From assembly GCA_016218965.1 (NCBI GenBank), contig JACRCP010000396.1, positions 1 through 48,103 of the forward strand: a DNA stretch of 48,103 nt, given 5' to 3'. This stretch comes from Deltaproteobacteria bacterium (GTDB taxonomy: Bacteria > Myxococcota > SpSt-1050 > JACRCP01). The position numbers and the translations under genes are program-made. Under the pieces are notes generated by a model that was not told the DNA's origin, did no database searches, and worked only from the letters and a program-made list of their open reading frames with translations. This document shows, in pieces, positions 12,133 to 44,397 of this stretch (position 1 is the stretch's first letter; each line of letters opens with the position of its first letter).

Positions 12133-12951
12133 ATGCTCGAACAGATCGTCGCGTTCGCCTCGGGTTTCGTGATCAAACCCGCCTACATGATCGCGATGCT
12201 CGTGTTCGTGCTGATCGTCGGGCGAAACAGCGAGCCGGACGTCCGGCAACTCGGCGCCGGAACGGCGGTTTTCCTGCTCGGGGAGGTCTTCTGCGCGGCC
12301 GACTACCTTTTTGCCGGCGGAAAAAACGTTGCACTGGAGTGGCTTCACGGCCTTGGCATGATCGCCGGCTCCGGGATTTTGTTTCTCGGCTTCATCAACA
12401 CGGCGGACCGAAGAGTGCTTTTCTTCTCGGCGCCCGGCCGCGCCTGCGCGTTGACGCGTTTCTGCGGCACCTGCGCCAAAAACACCCGGACGCCGTGCCG
12501 TTTCGAGCATCTGTTCATGTTCTTCTCGCTGTCGCTCGCGGTCGTCTCGTGCATGCCTTTCGCCTCGCCGTTCATCCAGATCGACAGGACCGTCAAGGTC
12601 TTCGGCACCGACGTCTGCCAGAACCACCCCGTTTTCCTGCAACTCTTCGAGATGCGCATCTATCCGGCGACCGCCGTGGTGCTTTTCTGTGCGTCATTTC
12701 TCGCCCTGCTCTGGATCAGGAACTCGCCGGTGGGCGTTGCGAAGTACCCTTTCGCCTTCGGCCTCGGGTTCTTTTCGTACGGTACGTTCAAGTATTTCCT
12801 GCTTGCCGCGTACCGCGAGGCCGTCGTGCGGGCCGACTTCTGGGAGGAGGTCACCGAGCTCCTCCTGACCGCCGGACTGATCATCTTCGTCGCACTTTTC
12901 CGCAAGCGCCTTTTGTTGAAAGGCTCTCACGAAACCGGGGAGGCGGCATGA
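12133..12951 (+). CDS. Polytopic integral membrane protein with conserved Cys pairs, translationally coupled to a radical SAM gene
   Basis: At least seven hydrophobic segments, plus CGTCAKNTRTPC and CQNHP motifs. The stop overlaps the rSAM start (ATGA at 12948-12951). Alternative in-frame GTG starts at 12109 and 12115, and a TATAAT lies at 12082-12087. Confidence 0.6.
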   Translation: MLEQIVAFASGFVIKPAYMIAMLVFVLIVGRNSEPDVRQLGAGTAVFLLGEVFCAADYLFAGGKNVALEWLHGLGMIAGSGILFLGFINTADRRVLFFSAPGRACALTRFCGTCAKNTRTPCRFEHLFMFFSLSLAVVSCMPFASPFIQIDRTVKVFGTDVCQNHPVFLQLFEMRIYPATAVVLFCASFLALLWIRNSPVGVAKYPFAFGLGFFSYGTFKYFLLAAYREAVVRADFWEEVTELLLTAGLIIFVALFRKRLLLKGSHETGEAA

Positions 12952-13976
12952 TTCGCGCCCGGGACGTCCTCGAAGCGGCAAAGATGGCGCGCTACGCGGC
13001 GTCATTCCTCCGGAAACGGCTGGTCCACGTCAACCTTCAACTCCTTTACGACTGCCCAATGCGATGCCGGATCTGCGACTTCTGGACCGACCGCTACCGT
13101 GACGAACCGGCGCTCACCGCCCGGCAGGTCGAGACGATCTCGGAGAACCTCGCAAGGATCGGCCCGCAGATCGTATCAATCGGCGGAGGGGAGCCGCTTT
13201 TGCATCCGCAGATTGTCGATGTCGTCCGGGCGTTGGGCTCGCGGCATTTCCCGGTGATGATCTGCAACGGCTGGTTCGTGACGCCGGCGATCGCCCGGGC
13301 GGTCTTTTCGGCGGGGGCGTACGAGGTGAGCGTGTCGGTGGACTACGCCGACCCCCGGCGGCACGACTCCCAACGCGGGGTCGAAGGGGCACACCGGCGC
13401 GCCCTCGATGCGCTGAACATTCTCAACCAGGCCCGGTCGGGGCCGTGGCAGCGCGTCCACATGATCACGGTCGTCATGGACGACAACCTCGAGGAGATCG
13501 AGCCTTTGATCCGTCTGTGCCGTTCGATGGGGATCACCTACCTCGTCACGCTGTATTCCGACAGCCGCGGGAGCAAGGAGACGCGCGCGGTGCCGCGTGA
13601 CGTGAGCGCCCGCCTCGTCGCTCTGAAACGCAGGCACCCCGAGTTCGTCGCCCTGCGCGGCTACCTCGGCAAGTTCTCGGAATCGGTCGGGTCGGGAGGG
13701 ATAGGGCCGTGTTTCGCCGGGAGGAACCTGTGCAACATAGACAACCGCGGGAACGTCGCGCTCTGCATCGACAGGATGGACGAACCCGTGGGGAACATCC
13801 TCGCCGATGACCCGCTGGTGATCGAGGAGAGGCTCCTTTCAAAGCACGAGTCGAACACCTGCCGCGCGTGCTGGACCTCGTGCCGCGGGTCCATTGAAAC
13901 GCTCATGTACGGCGGCGGTGCGCCCGCCAACCTGCTCGACTACTATCGGATGACGAGGCCTGTTGCTATCGCCTGA
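12948..13976 (+). CDS. Radical SAM enzyme with a C-terminal Cys cluster (SPASM/twitch-like)
   Basis: CPMRCRIC (CxxxCxxC) about 30 aa from the start, GGGEPLL SAM-binding motif, and C-terminal C-x2-C-x3-C plus other Cys. GGAGG RBS at 12938. Confidence 0.85.
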   Translation: MIRARDVLEAAKMARYAASFLRKRLVHVNLQLLYDCPMRCRICDFWTDRYRDEPALTARQVETISENLARIGPQIVSIGGGEPLLHPQIVDVVRALGSRHFPVMICNGWFVTPAIARAVFSAGAYEVSVSVDYADPRRHDSQRGVEGAHRRALDALNILNQARSGPWQRVHMITVVMDDNLEEIEPLIRLCRSMGITYLVTLYSDSRGSKETRAVPRDVSARLVALKRRHPEFVALRGYLGKFSESVGSGGIGPCFAGRNLCNIDNRGNVALCIDRMDEPVGNILADDPLVIEERLLSKHESNTCRACWTSCRGSIETLMYGGGAPANLLDYYRMTRPVAIA

Positions 13977-14988
13977 GACCCGCCTTCGCCGCCAGCATCG
14001 CCTCCCGCAACACCGACGCCGGGTGATTGAACGCGAGCGAAAGCCCGAGCGCGCACGCCGAGTGGCAGCGGGTGTCGCACGAGGGCTCGGGGCCGATTTG
14101 TTCGCGCCCCGCCGCCCTGATTCGGTCGAGGTCGGGCTCGGAGAGCAGGTTCCCCGCCACGCGGCCGATCTCGAGGCACGGGTAGAACACGTCGCCGACC
14201 GGGGACACAGCCAGCACGGTCGAGGGGCGGCACAGGAACTTTGAAAGGTCGCGCATGTGCTCGAGATACGCGACGGTGCCGTGGACCTTTCCGCCGCGCC
14301 TCTTCCGGGCAATCAGGAAGTCAAACAGCCGGCGGTACTCCGGGTCGCCGTCGAACCGTGCCGGGGCCTTCACGCCCAGAAGTTGCGGGCAGAGGGCGAA
14401 CCGAAAACCGCACGAGCTCGCGTATTCGTAGACGTCGTAGAGGTCCGCGAGGTTGTCTTCGGTCGCGACCGACGAGATGATGATCTCGTAACGCCTGCCG
14501 GGAAACGTACGTGCCCTCTCAATCTGCCCCAAGATGCGGGCGTGCGCCCCCGGCCCCGCTCCAAGCCAGCGATCGGCCTTGGCGGCGTCGAGGGTGTCGA
14601 GGCTGAACACGAGATGTTTGACGGCTTCGTTGATGAGCGTAAGGTGCCGCTCGACGTCGTCGCCGATCGTCGTAAGCACGACGCCGTCGAAACCCAGCGA
14701 CGGCAGGCCGCGAAGGACGTCGTTGAGCGCCGGATACCTGAGCGGCTCACCGCCGGTGAGGACCAGGAAATCGGCATAGCGCCGAATCGTTGCAAGAACC
14801 CGCAGGACCTCGGGGGCCGAAAGCACCGGTGAGGCCAGCCGGTAGTACGGCGTGCCCGTCCCGTCGCTGCAATACGGGCACCGGTAGTTGCAGGCGTAGG
14901 TGAGGTAGTACACGGCAAGAAGCGGGTGCCACCTAAGCGGGTCGCGCGTGCCCAAATGAACGAGGCTGTTTCGGAGGGTCAGGAGCAT
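13966..14988 (-). CDS. Radical SAM enzyme with a C-terminal Cys cluster, convergent with and overlapping the previous rSAM
   Basis: ATG at 14988 with AGGAG context. CNYRCPYC motif, TGGEPL, and C-terminal CDTRCHSAC. The last 11 nt overlap the 3' end of the plus-strand rSAM. Confidence 0.85.
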   Translation of the reverse strand: MLLTLRNSLVHLGTRDPLRWHPLLAVYYLTYACNYRCPYCSDGTGTPYYRLASPVLSAPEVLRVLATIRRYADFLVLTGGEPLRYPALNDVLRGLPSLGFDGVVLTTIGDDVERHLTLINEAVKHLVFSLDTLDAAKADRWLGAGPGAHARILGQIERARTFPGRRYEIIISSVATEDNLADLYDVYEYASSCGFRFALCPQLLGVKAPARFDGDPEYRRLFDFLIARKRRGGKVHGTVAYLEHMRDLSKFLCRPSTVLAVSPVGDVFYPCLEIGRVAGNLLSEPDLDRIRAAGREQIGPEPSCDTRCHSACALGLSLAFNHPASVLREAMLAAKAGLRR

Positions 14989-14998
14989 GATCCCGGCA

Positions 14999-15436: not shown

Positions 15437-15463
15437 GCGTCCCCCTTTCCGATATTCGGAAAC

Positions 15464-16106: not shown

Positions 16107-16343
16107 ATGCCGACGGTGATGCATCTGGGACCGTACCGGTTGTTTTTCTACGCCAACGACAGAGCGGAGCCGGTCCATGTTCACGTCGAGCGCGAGGCAT
16201 CGAACGCGAAGTTCTGGCTCGGGCCGGTGCGGCTCGCACGAAACAACGGTTTCAGGCCGATCGAGTTGGGGAGAATCGAACGCCTCGTGTCGGACCACGA
16301 GGACGGGATTGCGGAGGCATGGCATGACTACTTCGGGGATTGA
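16107..16343 (+). CDS. DUF4160-family small protein
   Basis: 78 aa (MPTV...RLFFYANDRAEPVHVHVEREASNAKFWL), overlapping the downstream DUF2442-like gene by 20 nt. Confidence 0.6.
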   Translation: MPTVMHLGPYRLFFYANDRAEPVHVHVEREASNAKFWLGPVRLARNNGFRPIELGRIERLVSDHEDGIAEAWHDYFGD

Positions 16344-16704
16344 GACGGCGGGGATCAGGGCTACTGATGTCCGGGTGAACCGGGACAGTCTGAGCGTCGA
16401 TCTCTCGGACGGGCGGACCATTTCGGTGCCCCTCGCCTGGTTTCCTCGTTTGCTCCACGGGAACATGGCGGAACGGGCGAACTGGCGGCTCATCGGAATC
16501 GGCGCCGGAATTCACTGGCCCGACCTTGACGAGGACATCAGCGTCGAAGCGCTGGTGGCCGGAGTCGGGTCGCAGGAAAGCCAGCGTTCGCTGGCCGCGT
16601 GGGTCGAATCCCGGCAAAAACGAGCGCCCGGCCGGAAGACCGCGCGAAACGGGCGCCGCGGCGCGGGAAGGTGCAAAGACACCGCACGCCACATCGCGAG
16701 GTAA
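16324..16704 (+). CDS. DUF2442-family protein, the usual partner of DUF4160
   Basis: Internal ATG at 16324. Contains the conserved LSVDLSDGRTISVPLAWFPRL segment. Confidence 0.55.
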   Translation: MTTSGIETAGIRATDVRVNRDSLSVDLSDGRTISVPLAWFPRLLHGNMAERANWRLIGIGAGIHWPDLDEDISVEALVAGVGSQESQRSLAAWVESRQKRAPGRKTARNGRRGAGRCKDTARHIAR

Positions 16705-17296: not shown

Positions 17297-17536
17297 ATGC
17301 TTGCCAAGAAGACGTCGAAAAACCAGATCACGCTGCCCAGGGACGCGGTAAAGGAATTCCCCGGAGTCGACTACTTCGACGTGTCCGTCGCCGACGGCAG
17401 AATCTGCCTCATTCCGGTGAAGTTCGAGTCCGCGGCCGGCACCATTGAAAAGGTCCGGAAGAAGATCGCTGCGCTTGGGATCACAGAGGAAGACATCCGG
17501 AATGCGATTTCGTGGGCGAGGGGCAAACGCAGGTGA
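17297..17536 (+). CDS. AbrB/MazE/SpoVT-type antitoxin
   Basis: AAGGAGG RBS. KNQITLPRDAVKEF swapped-hairpin motif. The stop overlaps the PIN gene start (GTGA). Confidence 0.7.
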   Translation: MLAKKTSKNQITLPRDAVKEFPGVDYFDVSVADGRICLIPVKFESAAGTIEKVRKKIAALGITEEDIRNAISWARGKRR

Positions 17537-17949
17537 AACGCCTCCGGGTCGTCGTTGACACGAATGTCGTTGTTTCGGCGCTCCTCTTTCCGGGCCTCAC
17601 GGCCGGGATAAGAGAACTTTGGAAATCCGGCGCATTCACAATGCTCGCATCCGGCGAAATGTTCGCCGAGTACGTCCGCGTTCTGGCTTACCCAAAATTC
17701 GCGCTTGCCGAAAACGAAGTGCGGGCGTTGCTGGACAACGAGGTAGTGCCGTTCATCACCCCCGTCAAACCGGGTTCGAAGTTCCCCCCGACCTGCCGCG
17801 ACCCCGATGACGACAAGTTCCTGGCCTGCGCGGCCGCAGGAAGGGCGGATTTCATAGTCACCGGCGACGACGACCTGCTCGTGTTGAAAAAACACGGCCG
17901 CTGCCGCATCGTGACGGTCAAGGATGCGCTGGCACTGCTCGGAAGCTGA
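17533..17949 (+). CDS. PIN-domain toxin
   Basis: VVDTNVVVSAL N-terminal PIN signature with later acidic residues (DPDDDKFLA, TGDDD). A GTG start at 17533 is proposed; the ORF track start is 17512. Confidence 0.7.
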   Translation: MKRLRVVVDTNVVVSALLFPGLTAGIRELWKSGAFTMLASGEMFAEYVRVLAYPKFALAENEVRALLDNEVVPFITPVKPGSKFPPTCRDPDDDKFLACAAAGRADFIVTGDDDLLVLKKHGRCRIVTVKDALALLGS

Positions 17950-18891: not shown

Positions 18892-19043
18892 GAACTTCTC
18901 CCCTCAGGCGACCGGGCTCGTCACCCTATACAACGGACGTGGCACGAACGCAACGCGGCCTACACAGTTCGATTCCTCACTTTCTCCATGCTATACTTTG
19001 AATGAGAATCTGGCTAATGAACGCCGTTCGCGGGAGTTTGATC

Positions 19044-19271
19044 ATGGACAAGGTCTTGGCAATAAAAGAAATCGAGGCGCGGTACAAATCCGAGTGGGTC
19101 CTGGTGGAAGACCCGACGACGGACGAGACCCTGGAGATCCGGAGCGGAAAAGTCGTGTGTCACAGCAAGGACCGTGACGAGGTCTACCGAGTGGCCGCAT
19201 CGCGAAAACCCAGAAACTTCGCCGTTCTGTACACCGGCCGGATGCCGAAGGACGCGGCGATCATCCTGTGA
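19044..19271 (+). CDS. Small protein upstream of a retropepsin-like gene (possible DUF5678-like partner)
   Basis: Internal ATG at 19044 with GGGAG upstream. 75 aa. The stop overlaps the next gene's GTG start (GTGA). Confidence 0.45.
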   Translation: MDKVLAIKEIEARYKSEWVLVEDPTTDETLEIRSGKVVCHSKDRDEVYRVAASRKPRNFAVLYTGRMPKDAAIIL

Positions 19272-19651
19272 TCCACCGGTTCAAAGCCAAACAGGGCCTT
19301 GTCGTCGTTCGGGCGGAACTGACCGGCCCGACTGGGAAAGCCTCCTTGCGGCTGGCACTCGACACGGGGGCGACGAACACCCTGATCAATGTCGGCATGC
19401 TTGTCGCGATCGGCTGCGATCCGGCGACCTCCAGGGAACGCGTCGAGGTGACCACAGGGAGCGGGGTGGAGTTTGCACCTCGGGTTGGGCTGAAAAGACT
19501 GTTCGTCCTCGGCTCAGAGAGACGTTCATTCCGCGTACTGGCGCATACCCTGCCGCCGAGCGCAGGTGTGGACGGGCTTCTGGGATTGGATTTCTTCCGA
19601 GACCGGAAGCTGGGGATCGACTTCCGGAAAGGCCAAATCACCGTCGCCTGA
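19268..19651 (+). CDS. Bacterial retropepsin-like aspartic protease
   Basis: LALDTGATNTLI (D-T/S-G-A catalytic motif) within a ~125-aa protein. Confidence 0.7.
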   Translation: MIHRFKAKQGLVVVRAELTGPTGKASLRLALDTGATNTLINVGMLVAIGCDPATSRERVEVTTGSGVEFAPRVGLKRLFVLGSERRSFRVLAHTLPPSAGVDGLLGLDFFRDRKLGIDFRKGQITVA

Positions 19652-20176: not shown

Positions 20177-22060
20177 CTACTTGCAGCACTTCTCTATCAG
20201 GTCCGGCGGCTGGACGCCGTATTCGCAGGCGCAGCAGACGTCCTTGCACTCGGGCGGCGTGCAGCAATTGTCTATGATCGCCGGGTCCACGGTGCCGCAG
20301 TCCGGTTTCGGCGCACAGCACTTCTCGTTCACCTCGGGCGGCAGCACGCCGTAGTCGCACTCGCAGCAGACGTCTTCGCAGCTGACGCAGCACTCGGCGA
20401 ACTGCTCGGGCGTCACCGAACCGCAATCCGGCGGCTCCACTCCGTAGTCGAGCGTGATGCAGCATTGCGACGCCACGGTGCAGTCGACCGGTTCCTTGGG
20501 GCAGCATTCGTCTATCACAGCCGGATCGACCTTGTCGCAATCCGGGGGAGGGATGCCGTACTCGGGGGCGGCGCAGCACTGCTCGTAGACATCCGGGGGG
20601 ATCACGCCGTAGTCGCACTCGCAGCACACGTCGCCGCAGTTGATGCCGGCGTCCGGCGCGGGACCGGCGTCCTCGCCGATGACTCCGCCGTCCGGCGGCT
20701 CGACACCGTACTCCGGCTGGATGGCACAGCACTCTTCGTAAACGTCCGGCGGGATCACGCCGTATTCGCACTCGCAACAGACGTCCTTGCAGTTCGTTCC
20801 TCCGCCGTCCGGAGCGGGACCGGCGTCCTGTCCCACGGCGGCGTCCCCGGAAACGCCCCCGTCCTCGGCCGGGCCTCCCGAGTCCTCCACCACGGCACCC
20901 GCATCCCCGGAAGTGACCGCGACGTCGCACCCGCCGACTACCAGCGAAAACGCCGACGCAGCCGCGGCCATGTGCCGCGCCACGCGCCTAAGCGGCCGCT
21001 GGCGGACAAGCTCCGAGACCCTGTAGTAGCAGTAGGGGTCCTCGAAGACCGACGGTCCCATTGCCGCGGCCACGCATTTCGCGCCGCCCCGGCAGAGTTT
21101 TGCGTACCGGCAGGTCTTGCAGAATCCCGTGAGGTCGGCGGCCCGGAAGAGCCGGTTGTACGAAAATGCCGCCGGGTCGTTCCAGATGTCAGATAGCGCC
21201 CTCTCGCGGACGTTCCCTTCGACAAACGGGTCGCGATCGCGGTCCGAGAACGCCTGCATCGAGAGGCAGCCCTTGATGTTTCCGTTCGACTCGATCCCGA
21301 TCGCCTGGAGCCCTGCCTGGCACCCGCCCCAGCGCTGGGGTTTCCCGTCCCACGACATGGCCCGCAGGCGCGAGTCGTACGGCCCGTAGAAACCGATCGA
21401 ATCGCCAATGTGGACTCGAATCCCGCCCTTCGATTCGAGCCGGTAGAGGCGCGGGAGCAGATCAAGAAGGTCCTCGGGCTCGAGCACCCAGTCATCCCGA
21501 TCCTTCAAGTTCCCCATGGATTTGCCGAGCTGGACGCGCCACGACGCGGCGCCGAGCTTCTCGGCCATGCCGCAGGTCTCTTCGAGGTGCGCAAGGTTGA
21601 GCTTGTTGGCCGTGGTCATGATGGCCGTCGAGACGCCCGCGTCGGCAAGGAATGAGAGGGCGCGCACGGTCTTCGCGAACGTCCCCCTGCCGCGGATCTT
21701 CTCGTGCACCGCCTCGGGGCCATCGATGCTCACCGCGGCGTTGGCGAGCCCCGCGTCCTTCATTCGGCGTGCAAGCTCCGCCGTCATGGAGTTCCCATTG
21801 GTCACGATGTTGGCGATCATCCCGCGGTCGCGGATGGCTTTCGCCACGACCTCCCAGTCGGGCCGAAGTGTCGGCTCGCCGCCCGATAGCGTGATGAGCC
21901 TGCCCCCGAGCCTCGCGAGCGAGCCAACGACGCCAAGGCACTCGGCGGTGTCCATCTCGTCGGGCCGGGCCGTACCCGCCCGCGAGCCGCAGTGCCCGCA
22001 CCGCAGATCGCACGCCAGTGTGAACTCCCACACGCAGTTGACCGGCTTGAACTCAGGCAT
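20177..22060 (-). CDS. Radical SAM/SPASM-domain enzyme fused in frame to a signal-peptide-like hydrophobic segment and five tandem Cys-rich repeats
   Basis: ATG at 22060 with GGAGGG RBS (longer ORF to 22123). CDLRCGHC CxxxCxxC, SGGEPT, and a SPASM-like CKTCRYAKLCRGGAKC cluster. This is followed by RRVARHMAAAASAFSLVVGGCDVAV (signal/lipobox-like), then a Gly/Asp linker and repeats of C-x-DVCCEC-x-YGV-x-PPD-x3-CC. There is no stop between the domains in the sequence as given. Confidence 0.8.
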   Translation of the reverse strand: MPEFKPVNCVWEFTLACDLRCGHCGSRAGTARPDEMDTAECLGVVGSLARLGGRLITLSGGEPTLRPDWEVVAKAIRDRGMIANIVTNGNSMTAELARRMKDAGLANAAVSIDGPEAVHEKIRGRGTFAKTVRALSFLADAGVSTAIMTTANKLNLAHLEETCGMAEKLGAASWRVQLGKSMGNLKDRDDWVLEPEDLLDLLPRLYRLESKGGIRVHIGDSIGFYGPYDSRLRAMSWDGKPQRWGGCQAGLQAIGIESNGNIKGCLSMQAFSDRDRDPFVEGNVRERALSDIWNDPAAFSYNRLFRAADLTGFCKTCRYAKLCRGGAKCVAAAMGPSVFEDPYCYYRVSELVRQRPLRRVARHMAAAASAFSLVVGGCDVAVTSGDAGAVVEDSGGPAEDGGVSGDAAVGQDAGPAPDGGGTNCKDVCCECEYGVIPPDVYEECCAIQPEYGVEPPDGGVIGEDAGPAPDAGINCGDVCCECDYGVIPPDVYEQCCAAPEYGIPPPDCDKVDPAVIDECCPKEPVDCTVASQCCITLDYGVEPPDCGSVTPEQFAECCVSCEDVCCECDYGVLPPEVNEKCCAPKPDCGTVDPAIIDNCCTPPECKDVCCACEYGVQPPDLIEKCCK

Positions 22061-25653: not shown

Positions 25654-25747
25654 TGGCAACTCCCTTCCCGGTTCGGGCTCAAGGGTCCGGCGATCATTGT
25701 ACAGTACCCCGCGATGTGCTTCAATGTGTGACCAGAGGTCCACCTGC
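25654..25747. promoter_or_regulatory. Divergent intergenic region with a conserved ~45-bp block (CATTGTACA...CGCGATGTGCTTCAATGTG) duplicated at 30024-30111
   Basis: Sequence identity to the second copy is seen directly. Promoter function is an inference from its position between divergent start codons. Confidence 0.4.
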
Positions 25748-30023: not shown

Positions 30024-30111
30024 TGGCAACCTCCGCTCGAAACTCTCGAAACTCTCGCCATTGTACATGACCTCGCGATGTGCTTCAATGTGCGCCGAAA
30101 GGACCAAACGC
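30024..30111. promoter_or_regulatory. Second copy of the conserved divergent intergenic block
   Basis: CATTGTACATGACCTCGCGATGTGCTTCAATGTGCGCC matches 25690-25735. It is flanked by the conserved starts CATTGGCAAC (minus strand) and CATGAAAGCCACCGCAT (plus strand). Confidence 0.4.
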
Positions 30112-36100: not shown

Positions 36101-39100
36101 CCGTTCCCGACGCTTCCGGGAAAAGAAAAGAAAAAGGAGTTCGCGACACCGGGCGACTCGATCCGGCCCCGTTGGAATTTCTCGTACACGCCCGAGGCCG
36201 TGATGCGCGCGTGGGAGGACGGCGGCGTCAAGGGGAGCGGCGAGGTTTCGCACAACGACAAGGGCGAAGGCAAGGTTGCCATCCCCGCGCTCTCGGCGGG
36301 CGTCTATCGCCTCAAGTACGAGACACAGGACGAGTTCGGCGCCAAGTTCGAGATGTCAAAGGAGTTCGTCGTCGGCGGCCGCCGGGCGAACATCGCCCTC
36401 CCCTCGCTCCTGCTCGTCGAGGAATCGTCGGTCAAGGTCGGCGGCACGGCGCGGATTCTCGCGCTTTCGGGCCTGCGCGACCAGTACATGGTGCTCGACG
36501 TCTACCGTGAAGGGAAGCGCGTGGATCGGCGGCAGCTCGAATCGGGCCGGGACTCGACGCTCATAGAGATACCCGTGACCGAGAAAGACCGCGGCGGTTT
36601 CGGCGTGACGCTCTCGGTCCTCCGCGACCACCAGTTCATGCACTCGTCGCAGACGGTGTTCGTCCCGTGGGACGACAAGGAGTTGAAGGTCGAGTTCTCG
36701 ACGTTTAGGGACAAGCTCCGCCCCGGGCAGAAGGAGAAGTGGACGGTGAAGCTTTCCGGCCCAGAGGGAAAGGACACTGCAGTCGCGGCGGCCGAGGTTC
36801 TTTCGTACCTGTACGACCGATCGCTTGACGCCTTCGTCCCGCACAGTCCGCCGAGCCCGCTGTCCATCTGGCCCCACCGCGCCTCGGTCGTCTGGGCGCG
36901 TGCGAACCTCGGGACGGCACACCAGGAGTGGATCGAGAGCCGCGGGTTCAAGCCGCTCCCCGGTTGGCCCGACCTCCATCCGGACCGCCTGAAATTCTAC
37001 GAAGGCTACGGGATCGGCGGGCCCGGGAGGCGAAGGTACTACAAGGGCGGCGGCGCACCGGAAGGCGCGGCCATGCGCAAGTCGATGCCCATGAAGGCAA
37101 TGGCCCGGATGGATCGCGACGAGGCCGAAATGAAGGCCGAAGAGGCCAGGCCGCCCGCTGCGCCGGCCGCGCAGGCCCCGATGGAGGCCGCCGACAAGGC
37201 CGTGGCTACGTCGGAGACGAAACAAAAGGCCGGCGACGGGAGGGACCGCCGCGAACCCGAGGCGCCGGTGCAGATGCGCGCCGATTTTTCGGAGACCGCG
37301 TACTTTTTGCCGCACCTCATCACGGGCGCCGACGGCACGGCGTCAATCGAGTTCTCGGTACCCGATTCGGTCACCTCGTGGAACGTCTGGGTCCACGCGG
37401 TCACAAAGGACCTAAAATCCGGCTCGACGACAAAAGAGGCCAAAACCGTCAAAGACCTCATGGTCCGCCCGTACATCCCGCGCTTCCTGCGCGAGGGGGA
37501 CAAGGCCGAGATCAAGGTCGTCGTCAACAACGCCTCGGACAAGGAGATCAAGGGACATCTCGCATTCGACATCATCGACCCGTCTACAGAGAAGAGCGTG
37601 CTCGAGTCCTTCGGCCTGCGGCCAGAGGACACGAAGAAGCTCCCGTTCACCGTTCCGGCAGGCGGCGGAACAAACCTCGGTTTCTCGCTCGCGACACCTG
37701 CGAAGGTCGGCCTGATAGCATTCAAGGTCACCGCCGTGTCGGGCGATGTGTCCGACGGCGAGCTTCGGCCTATTCCGGTGCTCCCCGGGCGGATGCACCT
37801 TGCGCAGTCCCGGTTCGTGACGCTTCGGGGCAAGGGCCAGAGGGTCATGAAGTTCGCCGATCTTGAAAAGGCCGACGACTCGACGCTGATTAACGAACAG
37901 ATGGTCGTGACGCTCGACGCGCAACTCTTCTACTCGGTGCTCTCGGCACTCCCCTACCTCGTGAACTACCCGTACGAGTGCACCGAGCAGACGCTCAACC
38001 GCTTCGTCTCGACCGGGATACTCTCTTCGATGTACGCGAAGTACCCCGCCATCGAAAAGATGGCAAAGGAGTTCTCGACCCGGAAGACCGAGTTCGAGCA
38101 GTGGGACCAGCCTGATCCCAACAGGAAGATGGCGCTCGAGGAGACGCCGTGGCTCCGGATGGCCAAGGGCGGGACGCACGACTACGACGATCTCGTAAAC
38201 GTCCTCGACCCGCGGATCACCCGCGCCCAGCGCGACGCGTCGCTCGCGAAACTGCGCAAGGCGCAGACCAGCTCCGGCGGCTTCCCGTGGTTCCCCGGCG
38301 GCCCGCCGTCGCCGTGGATGACCGTCTACATGCTCTACGGCTTCTCGAAGGCCCTCGAGTTCGGCGTGGACGTCCCCAAGGACATGGTCCAGCGCGCGTG
38401 GTCGTACGTGCACCGGTACTACATTGACGAGATCGTACGCGACATGATCCGCCACGACTGCTGCTGGGAGACCGTCACGTTCATCAACTACGTGCTCTCG
38501 AACTATCCGGATTCGAGCTGGACCGGAGGCGTCTTCTCGGACGACGAGCGCCAGAAGATGCTGCTGTTCTCGTTTGGCAAGTGGAAGAAGCACTCGCCGT
38601 ATCTCAAGGGGTATCTCGCGCTTACGCTCAAGAGGATGAAGCGCGAGAAGGACGCGCGCCTCGTGTGGGAGTCGGTCCTCGATTCGGCAAAGGAGAAGGA
38701 GGACCAGGGGACGTTCTGGGCGCCAGAGGACCGCGGCTGGCTCTGGTACAACGACACGATCGAAACACATGCGTTTGCGATCAGGACGACCATGGAGCTG
38801 ATGCCCGAGGAGCCGAAGCTCGACGGGATGGTGCTCTGGATCTTCCTTAACAAGAAACTCAACCACTGGAAATCCACGCGCGCCACGGCCGAGGTGGTCT
38901 ATTCGCTTGCGCACTACCTCAAGAAGACCGACCAGCTCGGCGTGCGCGAGGACGCGGCGGTGACGTTAAACGGCGAGACGACGCGGTTCGTTTTTGAGCC
39001 CGACAAGTACACCGGGAAGAAGAACCAGATCGTCGTACCGGGCGAGAAAGTTGACCCGAAGCGCACATCGACGATCACGGTCGAAAAGGACAGCAAAGGC

Positions 39101-39607
39101 TATCTCTTCGCCTCGGCGACGTGGCACTTCTCGACCGAGAAGCTGCCCGAGGAAGACCGCGGCGACTACCTTGCCGTCTCGCGACAGTTCTTCAGGAGGG
39201 TCAACACCGGCCGCGAGTTCGTCTTGCAGCCGCTCAAGGACGGGACAGCGCTTTCTCCCGGCGACGAGGTCGAGGTCCACATATCGCTCCGCTCAAAGCA
39301 CCAGATGGAGTACGTTCACCTGCGCGACCCGAGGGGCGCCGGTTTCGAGCCCGAAGGCGCCGTGAGCAGGCACAAGTGGGAGCTGGGCATCTACTGGTAC
39401 GAGGAGTACCGCGACTCCGGGACCAACTTCTTCTTCGAAAGACTCCCGCAGGGCGAGTACACGTTCAAGTACCGGATAAGGGCCGCGACGGCAGGCACCT
39501 TCAAGGTCGCGCCGGCGACCGTGCAACCGATGTACGCGCCGGAGTTCAACGCGTACAGCGCGGGAGCGGTGGTGAAGATCAGTTCGTCGGAGGAAAAGGC
39601 GAAGTAG
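33116..39607 (+). CDS. Bacterial alpha-2-macroglobulin family protein (YfhM/ECAM-like) with an intact thioester motif
   Basis: ~2160-aa ORF. The thioester signature YPYECTEQ (CxEQ) lies at ~37960-37985 within LVNYPYECTEQTLNRFV. MG-domain-like repeats precede it. A lipoprotein-type signal (LSGLFLAAAVLSALAGC) lies ~102 codons inside the ORF at the TTG at 33422. The ATG at 33116 has a strong GAGGAGG RBS but encodes a 100-aa Arg/Pro-rich extension, so the true start is uncertain. Confidence 0.85.
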   Translation: MTSPSVTHRPAVVRTVSSGALKARELLSLGQRPRYTGPKPGEALKGRNVRVSGCDPTSLALSGLASRSQPPPGALPRAEESRAFSAQPHRPRRRTAAGEPRTLSGLFLAAAVLSALAGCGGHAGAADAKQAGADAGGAGAAEEVAPLKVIKWTGKFSDGWKEFDKLANEQKHEKASELVEKMLESAKSSKDSEEWVRCLIKWTTLRVALHGYETSVRFLREQPWPEDLLGSTVLNLYYARTLVTYAHSYSWEINKRERVETKGVVDLKAWTMDQIFAEAQRAYEEVWKHREQLGDLPAKHLSEYLEPNTYPEGIRPTLRDAVSYLRVEILADTQGWRPEQSNEVFRLDLKNLLSDAPAAKDGKVFDLADPGVHPLEKIAAILADLEQWHAKKARKEAAFEARRERLERLHASFTEDQDRARIKHDLEKRLGGVSGKPWWSMGMATLSTFVQAEDASDALIRARKIAIEGREAFPDSVGGKRCNHVVKSIEAPDYSLSGMSSDGPKKRSIEVTHKNLGALHFRAYAVDIVRQIETADDYRIYPGWKALQKMVESGRPAHTWSVELPATPDYRMHETFVTPPMTKSGLYVVMASARKDYAQDDNKILGLDVVVTDLVMVTRQEGGEVEVTVLDGPAGKPVPGAEVTLYKYDWRNKHKSVDSETTDAKGVVRFSRKSQDGSYFLFAKKGVEVAYDPNYLYFYRQQPAPDQHATLIFTDRSIYRPMQKLFWKALVYHGRYDRADYKIATNTSVTISLVDPNHQTVETKTVTTNAYGTASGEFTIPTGRILGQWHLQSSLNGTAYVRVEEYKRPTFESKFLDPASALRLNKPATLKGEARYYFGLPVTNGAVKWRVTREPVYPWWWGWYWWAESRPAAAKIQTVATGTAALKEDGTFTFTFTPEADERGAESKHLTFRYAVTADVTDEGGETRSASKSFRLGFVSVEAAVRMETGFLMEGQTGDLTVLRTNLDGVPKAGKGAWKLLATSGPKEALTPAEQPFPTLPGKEKKKEFATPGDSIRPRWNFSYTPEAVMRAWEDGGVKGSGEVSHNDKGEGKVAIPALSAGVYRLKYETQDEFGAKFEMSKEFVVGGRRANIALPSLLLVEESSVKVGGTARILALSGLRDQYMVLDVYREGKRVDRRQLESGRDSTLIEIPVTEKDRGGFGVTLSVLRDHQFMHSSQTVFVPWDDKELKVEFSTFRDKLRPGQKEKWTVKLSGPEGKDTAVAAAEVLSYLYDRSLDAFVPHSPPSPLSIWPHRASVVWARANLGTAHQEWIESRGFKPLPGWPDLHPDRLKFYEGYGIGGPGRRRYYKGGGAPEGAAMRKSMPMKAMARMDRDEAEMKAEEARPPAAPAAQAPMEAADKAVATSETKQKAGDGRDRREPEAPVQMRADFSETAYFLPHLITGADGTASIEFSVPDSVTSWNVWVHAVTKDLKSGSTTKEAKTVKDLMVRPYIPRFLREGDKAEIKVVVNNASDKEIKGHLAFDIIDPSTEKSVLESFGLRPEDTKKLPFTVPAGGGTNLGFSLATPAKVGLIAFKVTAVSGDVSDGELRPIPVLPGRMHLAQSRFVTLRGKGQRVMKFADLEKADDSTLINEQMVVTLDAQLFYSVLSALPYLVNYPYECTEQTLNRFVSTGILSSMYAKYPAIEKMAKEFSTRKTEFEQWDQPDPNRKMALEETPWLRMAKGGTHDYDDLVNVLDPRITRAQRDASLAKLRKAQTSSGGFPWFPGGPPSPWMTVYMLYGFSKALEFGVDVPKDMVQRAWSYVHRYYIDEIVRDMIRHDCCWETVTFINYVLSNYPDSSWTGGVFSDDERQKMLLFSFGKWKKHSPYLKGYLALTLKRMKREKDARLVWESVLDSAKEKEDQGTFWAPEDRGWLWYNDTIETHAFAIRTTMELMPEEPKLDGMVLWIFLNKKLNHWKSTRATAEVVYSLAHYLKKTDQLGVREDAAVTLNGETTRFVFEPDKYTGKKNQIVVPGEKVDPKRTSTITVEKDSKGYLFASATWHFSTEKLPEEDRGDYLAVSRQFFRRVNTGREFVLQPLKDGTALSPGDEVEVHISLRSKHQMEYVHLRDPRGAGFEPEGAVSRHKWELGIYWYEEYRDSGTNFFFERLPQGEYTFKYRIRAATAGTFKVAPATVQPMYAPEFNAYSAGAVVKISSSEEKAK

Positions 39608-39685: not shown

Positions 39686-39799
39686 GTGTGCGACGCGCGA
39701 CGTCGTCGCGTGGCGCGAAACATCCCCGAGCCTGTCGAAGGGCTAAGGTTCCCGCCAATGCGGGCTGCCGGGTAGATGGATCGAGGATTGGAGGGATCC

Positions 39800-40252
39800 A
39801 TGGCACTGATGCTCTCGCGTGCAAAGAGGACCATCGGCGCGTTCATCTTCTCGCTTCTCATGTACACCTTCCCGTCACTCGGCGGCGGCTGCAACGTGGC
39901 CGAAGAAAAGGACGGCGGGGCGGAGGTGTTGCCCGCGGAAGATGCCGGTTCGTCAGACGCCGGCCCGTTGGACTACGGTTCTTCGGAAGCGGGTTACGGT
40001 CCGCCTTCCTGCACGACCGACGACGACTGCCGATCTCCCGAAGACCAGACTGCAGTCGCGTACTGCGATCAAGCGCGAGGCTGGTGCGAATACATCTTCT
40101 CGTGCGATTCGGATTCGGAGTGCCAAGAACACTTTGGAGAGTCCTTTTTCTGCGACCCCAAAAAAAAGCAATGCGTTTCCGGGCAAACAGACTTTGACGG
40201 CGGCTTCGACCCCGACGCGGACGCCACCCCCGATGCGGGCACCGCCGATTAG
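39800..40252 (+). CDS. Cys-rich secreted or lipoprotein-like protein, paralog A of the shared 45-aa leader family
   Basis: GGAGGG RBS. MALMLSRAKRTIGAFIFSLLMYTFPSLGGGCNVAEEKDGGAE is almost identical to the N-terminus of the 41072 gene. The mature part has CTTDDDC...C...C units (8 Cys). Confidence 0.7.
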   Translation: MALMLSRAKRTIGAFIFSLLMYTFPSLGGGCNVAEEKDGGAEVLPAEDAGSSDAGPLDYGSSEAGYGPPSCTTDDDCRSPEDQTAVAYCDQARGWCEYIFSCDSDSECQEHFGESFFCDPKKKQCVSGQTDFDGGFDPDADATPDAGTAD

Positions 40253-40907: not shown

Positions 40908-40976
40908 GTTTCACCTCCTGACATGTCCGAATTTAGCACCTTTTAAGGACCGCAACAACAGGATCGTTTTTGGCCT

Positions 40977-41021: not shown

Positions 41022-41071
41022 ACCCCACCCGACCGGCGTATAATGTGCCTGCACCGGGCAAGGAGGGAAAC

Positions 41072-41818
41072 ATGGCGCTCATCATCACGCGGGCCAAAAG
41101 GACCATCGGCGCGTTCATCTTCTCGCTTCTGCTGTACATCTTCCCGTCACTTGGCGGCGGGTGCAACGTGGCCGACGAGAAGGACGGCGGGGCCGAGATG
41201 TCGGACGTGTCCCCCGGCGGGGACGACGCTGTTTTGGCGGATGGCAGCACCTCGCCCGACGGCGGCTCGGAGGACTTTGGAAACACCTGTGGCGCCTACG
41301 GACCTCCCCCCTGCGAGTCCGACGAGGACTGCGCCGCGTACGGCGACGGCTACTACTGCGACAAGGATCATCAGATCAACATGTGCGGCGAGACGACCAC
41401 GTGGCCAACCTGCAAGGGAGGCGTTGTCACGAGCGACGCCGGCCCGCAGGACGCAGGCTACGAGGACTACGGGAACACCTGCGCCGCGTACGGCCCGCGG
41501 CCGTGCGACACCGACCAGGATTGCCGCGACTGGAACGACGCCGGCAACTGGGTCTGCGACAAGGACCATGTCGCGGGCTACTGCAACGGAGAACCGATGA
41601 CGTGGCCGACCTGCATCGAGACCGCCGATGCGGACGCAGGCTACGCCGACTTCGGAACGCCCTGCGCCGCGTACGGTCCCCAGCCGGCGCCCTGCGAGAC
41701 CGATGCTGAATGCGTTGCGCAGAACGGCGCGGGGTGGTACTGCGACAAAGATTTCGTCATTGACGTCTGCGGAACGCTGACGACCCAGCCGACGTGCGTT
41801 CCCGGCGGGGACAAATAA
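41072..41818 (+). CDS. Cys-rich secreted or lipoprotein-like protein with three ~55-aa six-Cys repeats, paralog B of the shared leader family
   Basis: AAGGAGGG RBS. The leader MALIITRAKRTIGAFIFSLLLYIFPSLGGGCNVADEKDGGAE, then three repeats of G-N/T-T/P-C-x-AYGP-x-PC-x-[ST]D-x-[DE]C...CDKD-x6-C-x8-C. Confidence 0.75.
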   Translation: MALIITRAKRTIGAFIFSLLLYIFPSLGGGCNVADEKDGGAEMSDVSPGGDDAVLADGSTSPDGGSEDFGNTCGAYGPPPCESDEDCAAYGDGYYCDKDHQINMCGETTTWPTCKGGVVTSDAGPQDAGYEDYGNTCAAYGPRPCDTDQDCRDWNDAGNWVCDKDHVAGYCNGEPMTWPTCIETADADAGYADFGTPCAAYGPQPAPCETDAECVAQNGAGWYCDKDFVIDVCGTLTTQPTCVPGGDK

Positions 41819-41837
41819 ACCGGAACAGGCAAAGAAC

Positions 41838-41904
41838 GATGCTGGATGCTAGATGCTAGATGGCGCAGATCGAAATCCAGCATCCAACGTCCGGCATCCA
41901 GCAT
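41838..41904 (+). promoter_or_regulatory. Tandem GATGCT(G/A)GATGCTAGATG repeats paired with a downstream inverted copy (ATCCAGCATCC...GGCATCCAGCATCC), forming an extended stem-loop spanning the annotated rSAM start
   Basis: Direct and inverted repeats seen in sequence. A regulatory role is inferred. Confidence 0.35.
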
Positions 41905-42992
41905 CCGCTGTGCCGCGCACCGCATCTGACGCATTCCGACACTTTGCCGCGAAGCACCCGCTCGGGTACCTCTACCTCGAGATCACGCGCCGATGTAACC
42001 TCAAGTGCGTCTACTGCGGAAGCTCCTGCGGCCCGAAGACGCTCCCCGAGGAGATGCCGGTCGCTCGCTGGGTCGCGGTGCTCGAACAGATTGCTGCCGA
42101 CTTCGATTCGAAGAAGATCATGCTCGCCATCACGGGCGGCGAGCCGCTTCTCAAGCCCGACGTGTTCGACCTCTTCGGCGCGGCAAAAAGGCTGGGTTTT
42201 CCATTTGGGATGGTCACAAACGCGACGCTCATCGACGACAAGATGGCCGAACGACTCGCCGGATGCGGGATTGGGTCAATCTCGCTCTCGTTCGACGCCC
42301 CGCCGGAGGTGAACGACTCGCTCCGCGGGAAGGGGATCTCGGAGCGGGTTGCGCGCGCCGCGAAAGCACTTCAGGATGCCGGTTACCGCGGCAAGCTCGA
42401 GATCATGACGACGTTTACGAAACCCGTCACGCCGCACTTGGACGCCCTTCGCAAGTACATCTCCCAACTCCGGGTCGGCCTCTGGCGGATTGTCCCCGTT
42501 ATGCCCATAGGTCAGGCGGCGACGCGGCCCGACCTCCTACCGGACTGCGAGGACTTCAAGACCCTTCTCAAGTTCGTCGAGACCGCGCGCAAAGACGGCT
42601 TGCGCCCGGCGCCCGAGCTTGGAGAGGAGGGGTTTTTGGGCGACCCCTACGAGACCGAAAAGTCCGTCCGCCCGTACAAGTTCCTCTGCCGCGCGGGTCT
42701 CACCATCGCGGGCATCTCGTACGACGGGAAGATCGGCGCCTGCCCCGAGCTGACTCCCGCGTTCACACAGGGCCACGTGGACCGGGACCGTTTCAAGGAC
42801 GTGTGGGAGACGAGATACGAAGTCTTCCGCAAACGGGACTGGACGCGGGTCGGCCAATGCCACAGTTGCAGGTCGTTCGACCGTTGCCTCGGCGGCAGCA
42901 TGCACCTCTACGAAAAACCCGGCGACGCCACCTGCCGGTGCCTTTTTGAAATGATCGGAGGAGACCGGACGACCGCGGGCCGCACGTCGTAG
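41853..42992 (+). CDS. Radical SAM/SPASM-domain enzyme (anSME/peptide-maturase-like) downstream of the Cys-rich repeat gene
   Basis: RRCNLKCVYC CxxxCxxC, TGGEPLL, and a C-terminal SPASM-like CHSCRSFDRC plus further Cys. The start could instead be the GTG at 41910 just after the stem-loop. Confidence 0.8.
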   Translation: MLDGADRNPASNVRHPASAVPRTASDAFRHFAAKHPLGYLYLEITRRCNLKCVYCGSSCGPKTLPEEMPVARWVAVLEQIAADFDSKKIMLAITGGEPLLKPDVFDLFGAAKRLGFPFGMVTNATLIDDKMAERLAGCGIGSISLSFDAPPEVNDSLRGKGISERVARAAKALQDAGYRGKLEIMTTFTKPVTPHLDALRKYISQLRVGLWRIVPVMPIGQAATRPDLLPDCEDFKTLLKFVETARKDGLRPAPELGEEGFLGDPYETEKSVRPYKFLCRAGLTIAGISYDGKIGACPELTPAFTQGHVDRDRFKDVWETRYEVFRKRDWTRVGQCHSCRSFDRCLGGSMHLYEKPGDATCRCLFEMIGGDRTTAGRTS

Positions 42993-43104
42993 CGCCTTAC
43001 AGGATGTGTTTCTCTATGTGGCCGTATCCCGGCGTCCGTGAACGCCGATCCAACTGGCCATCACGAACCGCCGTGCCTTCGGGAACTTCTGCGTGAGCGC
43101 CATG

Positions 43105-43488
43105 TCAGTCGGAGTTCATTGGCACGGCGGTGTCCGGCAACTTGCGCACGCGGTGCCTGCCGGGTTCGACGACGATGAATGATCTCAGGAGATCGTCCTG
43201 TGAGTGATGGCTGAAAACAGCAGTCAATTCGTCGTGAACGGCTTCCAGCGTACCGGGCGACACCCGCAGGTAGATCACTCCCCCTCTCCGGCCCCCCAAA
43301 AAAACCAGCGAACCGAAGTCCCTGTCTCGCGTTACCACAACCCGGCCTTCGGCGGCGCCCTTCTTAAGGATGGCCTCGTCAGCGGCAAGATGCACTTGCA
43401 GCCGCGCCACCGTCACAACGTCGTGCCCGAGACTCAGAAGATGCCGAACAGTGGCCGCATAGACGTCCTGATCGACAAGAAGTCTCAT
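43105..43488 (-). CDS. DUF5615-type (Mut7-C/PIN-like) putative toxin
   Basis: MRLLVDQDV...VVTRDRDFGSL pattern typical of the PIN-like partner of DUF433 proteins. Confidence 0.6.
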   Translation of the reverse strand: MRLLVDQDVYAATVRHLLSLGHDVVTVARLQVHLAADEAILKKGAAEGRVVVTRDRDFGSLVFLGGRRGGVIYLRVSPGTLEAVHDELTAVFSHHSQDDLLRSFIVVEPGRHRVRKLPDTAVPMNSD

Positions 43489-43724
43489 GCCGGGGGCGCC
43501 GGGGTGGAAACGTGCAGCTCTTCGGCGTCAAGAACGTCGATCGCGTATTGCACGCACGCGCGGATGTCATCCTCGGAGATATCAGGATAGTAGTCGCGGA
43601 CGATCCGCTCAAAAGGGACGCTCTCCCTGACCAGCTCCAGCACGTCGTGAACGGGAATTCGCGTTCCCGCAACGCAGGGCTTTCCGAAATGTACTTTCGG
43701 GTCGACTTCGATTCTCTCCTTCAT
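43485..43724 (-). CDS. DUF433-family small protein (antitoxin-like partner)
   Basis: Internal ATG at 43724 with GGGAGG RBS. Conserved GKPCVAGTRIPV motif. 4-nt overlap with the DUF5615 gene. Confidence 0.65.
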   Translation of the reverse strand: MKERIEVDPKVHFGKPCVAGTRIPVHDVLELVRESVPFERIVRDYYPDISEDDIRACVQYAIDVLDAEELHVSTPAPPA

Positions 43725-44109
43725 CGCGCCTACCTCCCGGTCTACGACCAGCACCATTATGCATTCCGCCGGCGGGATCGTCAATGGACCAAGCACAACG
43801 GAAGGTTAGCCGTTTCGATGAAGTGGGCCCCGGCCGCGGCGTTCGACCCTCGCGGGCTGCTTGTCGCAGCCGGGGTGCGGACTCTTCGGCCCGGCGTCTG
43901 CCGGCCCGGGAGAAGGGCCAGGACGGCCTCGGCTCGCCCACGGCGCGATAAGATCCCAGGGTAGCCGCTGCAACACGCGACCCCCGTGGGGTCGTCCGTC
44001 ACCGGCCATTCGGAATGTGCAGAACGTTCCTTCCTTCCCGTTCGTCGTCCGACGCTTCTGCCGGAATGCCCCACGGGGGCATCGTATTGAAGCCCGGGGT
44101 TGCCGCAGG

Positions 44110-44397
44110 CTACCCCGGGATCGCGGAAAAAGAAAACACATCATACAACCCTGAAGGGGTTGCGTCCTTCTTTTCGTACAAGTCCAGCGCCGCCTCCTCC
44201 CACTCCGCCTCCGTCGGCAATCGCTTCCCCGCCCATGCGCAGTACGCCTTGCTTTGGTTCCAGTCCACGCAGTTGATCGGGTGGCTGTCCCTCCCCGAAA
44301 CGCCGTAGTTGCAGTAGGTGCCTGGACGGCCCAGCGGTACGTGGCACCGTCGTGTTCGCACCGTCGTGTTCAGCACCAAGCTCAGGGCCTCGGACAA
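44110..44397 (-). pseudogene. Fragment of a formylglycine-generating-enzyme/sulfatase-modifying-factor (FGE/SUMF1) domain gene
   Basis: Only ~95 aa, containing the central FGE signature [39 protein letters not shown]. The N- and C-terminal thirds of the ~250-aa domain are missing, and it overlaps the aminotransferase 3' end. Confidence 0.5.

Follow-up and report, generated by a model that had tools for sequence, protein, structure and literature searches.

Radical SAM enzymes fused to, or encoded beside, lipoproteins with repeated X-Tyr-Gly motifs in a Myxococcota contig

The stretch of DNA analysed here, referred to as the window, is the whole 48,103-bp contig JACRCP010000396.1 of a metagenome-assembled genome (MAG) from a Deltaproteobacteria bacterium placed in the Myxococcota. 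Four of its genes, rSAM#1 to rSAM#4, encode radical S-adenosylmethionine (rSAM) enzymes with a Pfam Radical_SAM match (PF04055) and a CxxxCxxC motif, and a SPASM domain (PF13186) was detected by Pfam in rSAM#3 and rSAM#4 only. It is these last two that concern us: rSAM#3 continues, in a single reading frame, into a lipoprotein-type signal peptide and a repeat-rich tail, and rSAM#4 starts 34 nt downstream of the gene for a lipoprotein, lipoB. The only family-wide conserved feature of both sets of lipoproteins is a repeated X-Tyr-Gly-(V/I/P)-x-Pro motif. Among the 30 predicted window proteins that were compared, the density of Tyr-Gly (YG) is high only in the rSAM#3 tail, in lipoB and in its paralogue lipoA. 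Because the GC content of the window is ~64%, reading frames were picked by third-position GC; coordinates are collected in Table 1.

The inventory agrees largely with the original prediction, which had been made from the sequence alone. The four rSAM genes lie where it had placed them, and its expectation that at least two of them carry SPASM clusters holds for rSAM#3 and rSAM#4. It had also described a truncated gene for a formylglycine-generating enzyme (FGE), in which we find only positions 78-122 of the 255 of PF03781 matched, and had seen no sulfatase gene; no PF00884 match was obtained among the ~35 window proteins scanned against Pfam. Of the three Cys-rich secreted repeat families that it listed (CC-E-C, six-Cys and GGNC repeats), all are present, but the CC-E-C repeats have no gene of their own, since they make up the C-terminal 250 residues of rSAM#3.

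An enzyme, a signal peptide and a repeat tail in one chain

The rSAM#3 gene encodes a 627-residue protein (P0001), and its ATG, at 22060, is preceded at a distance of 5 nt by the ribosome-binding site GGAGG. The enzyme domain scores 88.5 bits for Radical_SAM and 34.4 bits for SPASM, and AlphaFold2 models it with a predicted local distance difference test (pLDDT) value >90 across most of residues 1-350; the solved folds closest to it are those of PqqE, SkfB, SuiB and anSME, all at <23% identity. It is followed by the segment RRVARHMAAAASAFSLVVGGC, in which a basic stretch leads into an Ala-rich hydrophobic stretch, a GGC with a lipobox-like Cys and an acidic region. Lipoprotein signal peptides are laid out in this way, and the orientation implied is N-in, C-out. 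In the AlphaFold2 prediction, residues 356-375 form a helix, and the signal region does not match NCBIfam NF058595, a model labelled "lipo-invert putative C-terminal anchoring domain". In a 70-sequence alignment of the rSAM#3 family, the lipobox Cys378 is invariant; the strict lipobox pattern occurs in 88 of 110 homologues, and the others that were examined also have a Cys past the hydrophobic stretch.

The fusion of enzyme, signal and tail is common to more than 100 homologues in Myxococcota and "Deltaproteobacteria" MAGs. Since it recurs across independent assemblies, it is not an assembly artefact. Three of the homologues sit on long contigs in unrelated neighbourhoods, and no conserved partner gene, small or other, was found around these three, which indicates that the fusion gene is self-contained.

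The tail matches no Pfam or NCBIfam family. Its repeats are recognizable as four copies at the DNA level, and its seven (D/E)YG(V/I)xP sites are embedded in CxxVCCEC...CC modules. Across the 110 homologous tails, YG is present in every one, with a mean of 4.8 sites against 0.45 expected when each tail is shuffled, a roughly tenfold excess, and 79% of all Tyr residues directly precede Gly. The surroundings of these sites are constrained as well: Asp or Glu precedes the Tyr at -1 in 97%, Val or Ile occupies +2 in 76%, and Pro stands at +4 in 91%. Cys, by contrast, is found at -2 and at -4 in only about half of the sites, and the tails of P0087, P0108 and P0117 have 1-2 Cys yet retain 3-4 YG sites. 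That YG is kept in such Cys-poor tails identifies (D/E)-Y-G-(V/I)-x-P as the conserved unit and the cysteines as an optional scaffold.

When the tail was used by itself to query 1.8 billion representative proteins, 14 matches were returned, a small number because the repeats are compositionally biased. Among them was a split version of the system. P0361 is a stand-alone lipoprotein of 193 residues, in which MKKTVMTGFVLSSLLVGC is followed by four CxxVCCECDYGxLPPEV repeats, and its gene lies 25 nt upstream of one for an unfused, 398-residue rSAM-SPASM protein that shares 45% identity with the enzyme domain of rSAM#3 (locus L092). That fused and split forms both exist argues strongly for the tail being the working partner of the enzyme and a genuine lipoprotein module.

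A lipoprotein gene followed by rSAM#4

The second module has two genes. The lipoB ATG is preceded by the ribosome-binding site AAGGAGG, and the protein has a GGGC lipobox; Cys accounts for 7.7% of its residues, and three of its five YG sites read AYGP(P/R/Q)P. The paralogous lipoA, 1.3 kb upstream of lipoB, has the same signal peptide (140 nt, 86% identical).

At E <= 1e-10, rSAM#4 has 753 homologues. Of the top 120, which are mostly from Myxococcota, the majority are 52-58% identical to it. Eighty related loci were fetched, of which 76 had enough upstream sequence for comparison. The upstream open reading frame (ORF) contains at least one YG in 71 of the 76, at least two in 64 and at least three in 56, with the consensus x(Y/L/F/V/W)-Y-G-P-x-P, and the strict signal-plus-lipobox pattern was matched upstream in ~35 of the 80. 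The modules that surround YGPxP vary. Some partners share the Cys module of the window, C.P.AYYGPxPC..D..C...GWYCD...CG...WPxC, and others have Cys-poor Asp-/Gly-rich repeats (VVYYGPQPVD) or CC..G..C modules; at 19 loci the upstream ORF has at most four Cys and at least three YG sites. No third conserved gene was found around the pair of lipoprotein and rSAM#4-type enzyme.

The same order occurs outside the Myxococcota. rSAM#4 groups with Clostridium and Methanocella relatives (N-terminally truncated) that score 364-402 bits on the NCBIfam model TIGR04133. The partner of the Clostridium enzyme (372-402 bits) is a mini-lipoprotein that has little after its lipobox other than KYGPP, present two or three times, and a short tail; it contains one or two Cys, the lipobox Cys included.

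Two further observations concern this module. The Clostridium KYGPP mini-lipoprotein (L084, 5775-5969) weakly matches NF058595 (E = 0.008; 16 bits, cutoff 37). In the window, lipoA, lipoB and rSAM#4 are directly preceded by the gene of an alpha-2-macroglobulin, a protein that traps proteases; this would be suggestive if the lipoproteins inhibit proteases. A functional link, suggested by the position of this gene next to lipoA on the same strand, was rejected, as no homologue of it was present within 6 kb in the 80 related loci.

Relation of rSAM#3 to the spliceases

Spliceases are enzymes that excise tyramine at XYG motifs, and the ketoamides that result inhibit proteases (PMC11414181, PMC9811515, PMC10849128, PMC11626197). 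The family is widespread and has been mined through its YG-rich neighbours (PMC11414181, PMC11002830, PMC10849128, PMC9811515, PMC11626197). PlpX, the founding splicease, has been placed in InterPro IPR026482 (PMC11002830).

The placement of rSAM#3 relative to the spliceases rests on NCBI-annotated relatives, found by tblastn against annotated plasmids. The nearest of these relatives are members of the NCBIfam families TIGR03913 ("GDL motif peptide-associated radical SAM/SPASM maturase") and TIGR04103 ("nif11-class peptide radical SAM maturase 3"), the latter of which we take to be IPR026482, and are 37-41% identical to rSAM#3 (39% for the Nostoc member and 40% for the TIGR03913 type). X-Tyr-Gly partners adjoin every one that we name. 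In Nostoc, a Nif11-leader precursor ending in ...SIALYGLPPELF lies directly upstream, and the enzyme gene is followed by an ORF of 71 residues that is like the Y protein of the spliceases. In Burkholderia there are three DUF1842/DUF1843 neighbours with TPYGVA, AMYGVA and PMYGVG, and in Agathobacter an unannotated small upstream ORF ends in ...FGPVMYGTGVRM.

Pairwise BLAST scores separate the enzymes into distinct groups. Within the splicease-type clade (rSAM#3 and the Nostoc, Burkholderia and Agathobacter enzymes) they range from 205 to 364 bits, and within the TIGR04133 clade (rSAM#4, another Myxococcota member and the Clostridium and Methanocella enzymes) from 238 to 540 bits; between the two clades they fall to 87-165 bits. 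Comparisons of rSAM#1 and rSAM#2 with all others gave 34-72 bits, and one of them gave no match. By its sequence, rSAM#3 is a splicease-clade rSAM-SPASM enzyme that represents a sister family.

Between the rSAM core and SPASM, the splicease-clade enzymes themselves have a conserved IG(Y/F)YGPY loop, located at residues 224-229 (21374-21391) of rSAM#3. It reads GFYGPYD in rSAM#3 and GYYGPYE in the Nostoc and Burkholderia enzymes and resembles the XYG/YGP substrate motif, either as a possible pseudo-substrate or by chance.

Proposed maturation of the lipoproteins

We lean towards the view that the rSAM#3 and rSAM#4 modules are pairs of a maturase and its substrate, in which the substrates are exported lipoproteins, X-Tyr-Gly is the target and tyramine splicing the mechanism. 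The parts of this proposal differ in strength. The YG motif is very probably the target. Tyramine excision by rSAM#3, as its clade would predict, we judge to be an even matter, and for rSAM#4 we make the same assignment only tentatively, as the less probable of the two.

Because radical enzymes with Fe-S clusters are cytoplasmic, the modification would have to precede export, as it does in the pairs of anSME with sulfatases and QhpD with QhpC. In the order of events that we infer, the enzyme would act in the cytoplasm while the tail or the lipoprotein precursor is still unfolded, excising a tyramine at each of its Tyr-Gly sites, and the signal peptide would then direct Sec export. The lipobox Cys would be lipidated and the signal peptide removed by signal peptidase II, a cut that in the fusion would free the modified lipoprotein from the enzyme. 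Outside the cytoplasm, the Cys modules would oxidise to disulfide-stabilised scaffolds that display the ketoamides. These might inhibit cell-surface proteases, a role that is plausible in predatory, protease-secreting Myxococcota.

Several points weigh against splicing in one or both modules. The best NCBIfam scores of rSAM#3, 296.8 bits on TIGR03913 (cutoff 591.75) and 285.5 bits on TIGR04103 (cutoff 725), are so far under the cutoffs that it belongs to a sister family and is not a member of either. Nearly every X in the rSAM#3 family is Asp or Glu, and neither a Y protein nor an activating helix of the leader type was identified. The confidence of AlphaFold2 is low over most of the tail. The hydrophobic segment ahead of the tail may simply be a membrane anchor, and cleavage by signal peptidase II of a signal peptide behind a 350-residue cytoplasmic domain is, to our knowledge, unprecedented. 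For rSAM#4, the only strong NCBIfam match is to TIGR04133, at 259.5 bits where the cutoff is 425 (the family ranked second reaches 112 bits), and that model is a hypothetical equivalog only. Its distance from the splicease-clade enzymes (25-28% identity, 89-121 bits) makes the transfer of their chemistry to rSAM#4 weaker. Lastly, the DYG site of RcsA, the single published natural case that has been checked, is not spliced (PMC11626197).

That last observation, together with the acidic X, would also suit a different Tyr-centred radical reaction of the triceptide type, such as formation of a three-residue cyclophane or of another C-C or C-O cross-link from the Tyr ring to the residue at +2, which is Val or Ile in the rSAM#3 fusion family and Pro in the rSAM#4 family. 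Triceptide-type rSAM-SPASM enzymes act on aromatic-X-X motifs, which Y-G-(V/I/P), with its strongly conserved +2 position, fits, and NCBIfam models of the WgkB type give moderate scores of 84-112 bits. Set against this, rSAM#3 is much closer to TIGR04103 and TIGR03913 (285-297 bits) than to those models, and its close named relatives all have splicease-like XYG precursors, among them the Nif11 precursor with a small Y-like ORF downstream. We regard a cross-link as fairly unlikely, although it is the alternative to which we give most weight. We consider it very improbable, and the least favoured of all the readings, that the tail is not modified and that a membrane anchor merely precedes an ordinary periplasmic disulfide- or metal-binding tail while the enzyme acts on another substrate. 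The low model confidence of the tail and its lack of any known domain agree with such an arrangement, and its CCxC clusters could bind metals, but it would leave unexplained the tenfold excess of YG, the near-invariant (D/E)YG(V/I)xP, the 79% of tail Tyr residues that lie in YG, the split pair of lipoprotein and rSAM enzyme, the XYG partners of every named relative and the parallel two-gene rSAM#4 cassette across phyla.

The original prediction had looked instead to the cysteines, reasoning from anSME and FGE as anaerobic and aerobic sulfatase maturases that the rSAM enzymes of the window might have been recruited to exported Cys-rich proteins. Recruitment to such proteins stands for rSAM#3, through the fusion, and for rSAM#4, through adjacency; rSAM#1, rSAM#2 and the GGNC protein show no such link. 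Cys-directed action, whether formation of a thioether to Asp or Glu (as by QhpD on QhpC, or in ranthipeptides) or of formylglycine as by anSME, would accord with the Cys content of the substrates (8% over the 627-residue fusion and 7.7% in lipoB), with the Cys that flanks D/E-Y-G in about half of the sites and with the presence of PapB, StsB and SkfB models and anSME structures among the generic matches. We nevertheless think it improbable. Cys is conserved in neither family, whereas X-Tyr-Gly is, and substrates with few or almost no Cys retain 3-8 YG sites, as the tails of P0087, P0108 and P0117, the 19 Cys-poor rSAM#4-type loci and the Clostridium mini-lipoproteins illustrate. The sulfatase logic fares no better: the C/S-x-P/A-x-R motif is absent from the rSAM#3 tail, lipoB, the GGNC protein and mature lipoA, the top 25 NCBIfam matches of each of the four enzymes include no anSME model, and the supposed FGE counterpart is a 45-position fragment beside a toxin-antitoxin pair. 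The Cys richness and the FGE fragment are red herrings, and X-Tyr-Gly remains our preferred target for rSAM#3 and rSAM#4.

Three independent modules and the other genes of the window

rSAM#1 and rSAM#2, together with a polytopic membrane protein, are a separate conserved module, unrelated to those of rSAM#3 and rSAM#4. The two rSAM genes are convergent and their 3' ends overlap by 11 nt; the start of rSAM#1 overlaps the stop codon of the upstream membrane-protein gene, whose product carries a C..C..C motif. The long ORF of rSAM#2 extends to 15315, and its N-terminal part looks like an out-of-frame, R/S/P-rich sequence. Homologues of rSAM#1 in Myxococcota, Verrucomicrobia and Thermodesulfobacteriota are 58-81% identical to it, most of them ~60-65%, and the convergent pair recurs in all three phyla (loci L089, L090 and L091), with the 3' ends again overlapping in Verrucomicrobia, where rSAM#2 is 58% and the membrane protein 30% identical to its counterpart. 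No NCBIfam equivalog covers this three-gene module, and it has no YG-rich or Cys-rich partner. On the Verrucomicrobia contig it lies among genes for an acyl carrier protein (ACP), a ketoreductase and FabA, two Zn_ribbon_HMPTM rSAM enzymes and one B12-binding rSAM enzyme. These surroundings are a hint of lipid or cofactor chemistry and suggest that the module belongs to an uncharacterised lipid or cofactor pathway.

The remaining two candidates for a common system are bystanders. The FGE fragment is an ORF of 95 residues (PF03781, E = 7e-15) whose reading frame departs from the family right after the matched part, and no further FGE-like frames are evident near it; it is probably a pseudogene remnant. 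In the GGNC lipoprotein, a 19-residue unit of the form C..C.GGNC...C......C...C occurs five or six times; the protein is 16% Cys and looks like a Cys-laddered beta-solenoid. It has no Pfam or NCBIfam match, no YG and no adjacent rSAM gene, and is unrelated to the rSAM modules.

Synteny was compared between the rSAM#1/#2 and rSAM#3 modules, the 20-kb spacing of rSAM#3 and rSAM#4 exceeding the flanks examined. The rSAM#1/#2 loci have no rSAM#3 within 7 kb, and the rSAM#3 loci have no rSAM#1/#2 within 8 kb. This absence of synteny where it could be tested makes the co-occurrence of the three modules look coincidental, and in place of one common system the window holds three independent radical SAM modules.

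Table 1. Features of the window, with positions counted from its first nucleotide
Feature	Positions	Strand	Remarks
Polytopic membrane protein of the rSAM#1/#2 module	~12130-12951	+	Module spans 12130-14961
rSAM#1	12948-13976	+	Radical_SAM; motif CPMRCRIC
rSAM#2	13966-14961	-	Radical_SAM; motif CNYRCPYC
rSAM#3 fusion (P0001)	20177-22060	-	627 residues; Radical_SAM and SPASM
rSAM#3 enzyme domain	21011-22060	-	Residues 1-350; CxxxCxxC C17/C21/C24 at 21989-22012; SPASM
rSAM#3 internal lipoprotein-type signal peptide RRVARHMAAAASAFSLVVGGC	20927-20989	-	Residues 358-378; read directly from the sequence
rSAM#3 tail, CC-E-C repeats	20180-20926	-	Seven (D/E)YG(V/I)xP sites
(D/E)YG(V/I)xP windows of the rSAM#3 tail	20750-20767, 20696-20713, 20597-20614, 20546-20563, 20432-20449, 20339-20356, 20207-20224	-	6 residues each, from D/E
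Alpha-2-macroglobulin	33116-39607	+	2,163 residues
lipoA	39776-40252	+	Lipoprotein paralogous to lipoB; two YG sites (DYGS, GYGPPS)
lipoB	41072-41818	+	Lipobox Cys at 41162-41164; three six-Cys modules; five YG sites
rSAM#4	41853-42992	+	Radical_SAM and SPASM; TIGR04133 clade
DUF433/DUF5615 toxin-antitoxin pair	43105-43805
FGE-sulfatase domain fragment	44110-44397	-	PF03781 positions 78-122 of 255
GGNC-repeat lipoprotein	45591-46091	-	19-residue repeats; 26 Cys; no YG

Towards its two ends the window carries genes of an ordinary chromosomal kind (an EF-G paralogue, PurF, a flotillin, an RCK-domain channel, an aminotransferase, QueF and YchF). In the interior there are numerous lipoproteins whose linkers are acidic (SDxSD), along with several toxin-antitoxin pairs and the 2,163-residue bacterial alpha-2-macroglobulin, and scans for Rfam families and tRNA genes found neither in the window. 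Small accessory or toxin-antitoxin-like genes lie between the modules (16177-16704, 17512-17949, 19002-19651 and 43105-43805); they include a PIN_3 toxin and the DUF433/DUF5615 pair, and a DUF2442-like ORF, a small ORF and a retropepsin-like ORF were recognized by eye only. Acidic linker repeats coding for (D/S)xSD occur in at least four secreted proteins (7654-7743, 25884-26024, 30248-30337 and 32801-32890), and a 300-nt duplication, 86% identical (25695-25994 and 30059-30358), spans the 5' ends of two lipoprotein genes. Two secreted proteins, at 23935-26052 (-) and 31894-33093 (+), terminate in ...SSGCSCSAVR and ...ALGCGCVTVRMN, respectively; these GC(S/G)C endings recall the start of the MYXO-CTERM signal, without the ensuing transmembrane helix.

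Implications and comparison with known systems

Spliceases and the pairing of TIGR04133 enzymes with lipoproteins are kinds of system that are already known. In the searchable literature we found no splicease-clade enzyme joined to a multi-YG domain by way of a lipoprotein signal and no mention of a YGPxP motif in TIGR04133 partners, although an earlier description of either is possible. The widest form of our proposal, which we advance as a doubtful one, is that rSAM#3 and its more than 100 homologues would be single-chain proteins of enzyme, signal and substrate in which the internal lipobox would free ketoamide-bearing envelope lipoproteins, and that, with the TIGR04133-type cassette added, backbone-spliced beta-amino acids would be common in envelope proteins of Myxococcota and some Firmicutes. 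If this were true, such residues would not be a curiosity of small secreted peptides alone, and tyramine splicing would act on envelope proteins as a step firmly coupled to their export as lipoproteins, both in hundreds of lineages of Myxococcota and, more simply arranged, in Clostridia. The fusion is a one-gene system that would supply enzyme and substrate from a single ORF, which would be convenient for tests of the chemistry and for protein engineering, and it raises the cell-biological question of whether Lgt and Lsp can process a signal peptide behind a 350-residue cytoplasmic domain. The uncharacterised TIGR04133 family gains, in YGPxP, a concrete target motif that can be tested.

Among known systems, QhpD with QhpC and anSME with sulfatases share with the modules described here a cytoplasmic Fe-S enzyme that acts on an unfolded protein before export, and the generic rSAM-SPASM fold is common to all of them. 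QhpD and anSME, however, target Cys or Ser, whereas here Cys is dispensable across the families, there is no sulfatase motif or gene and the similarity in sequence is only generic.

The spliceases PlpX, PcpX, RhaX and RcsX are, like rSAM#3, rSAM-SPASM enzymes with repeated X-Tyr-Gly substrate sites, and the YGLPPE of the Nostoc Nif11 precursor resembles the +2 to +5 context of the rSAM#3 tail, YGVxPP. The rSAM#3 system differs from them in that its substrate would be a 250-residue lipoprotein domain, fused C-terminally through a signal peptide, and not a separate peptide with a leader; in its X, which is nearly always Asp or Glu; in having neither a Y protein nor a Nif11 or NHLP leader; and in its Myxococcota host. 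Its product would be an envelope protein, whereas the products of spliceases are secreted small peptides. In TIGR03913 (Burkholderia, Azospirillum), which gives the best NCBIfam match, the partners are likewise proteins rather than short peptides and have xYGV sites. Those partners are separate proteins that have no lipoprotein signal; the rSAM#3 tail, for its part, has no GDL motif and no DUF1842 or DUF1843 match, and the score of the enzyme is half the cutoff.

For rSAM#4 the counterpart is TIGR04133 itself, a hypothetical equivalog of NCBIfam named 'rSAM with lipoprotein', the partner family of which is presumably TIGR04134. It shows the same two-gene order as lipoB and rSAM#4, lipoprotein and then rSAM-SPASM enzyme. 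The Myxococcota lipoproteins differ in being far longer, with added Cys-, Asp- or Gly-rich modules around a YGPxP core.

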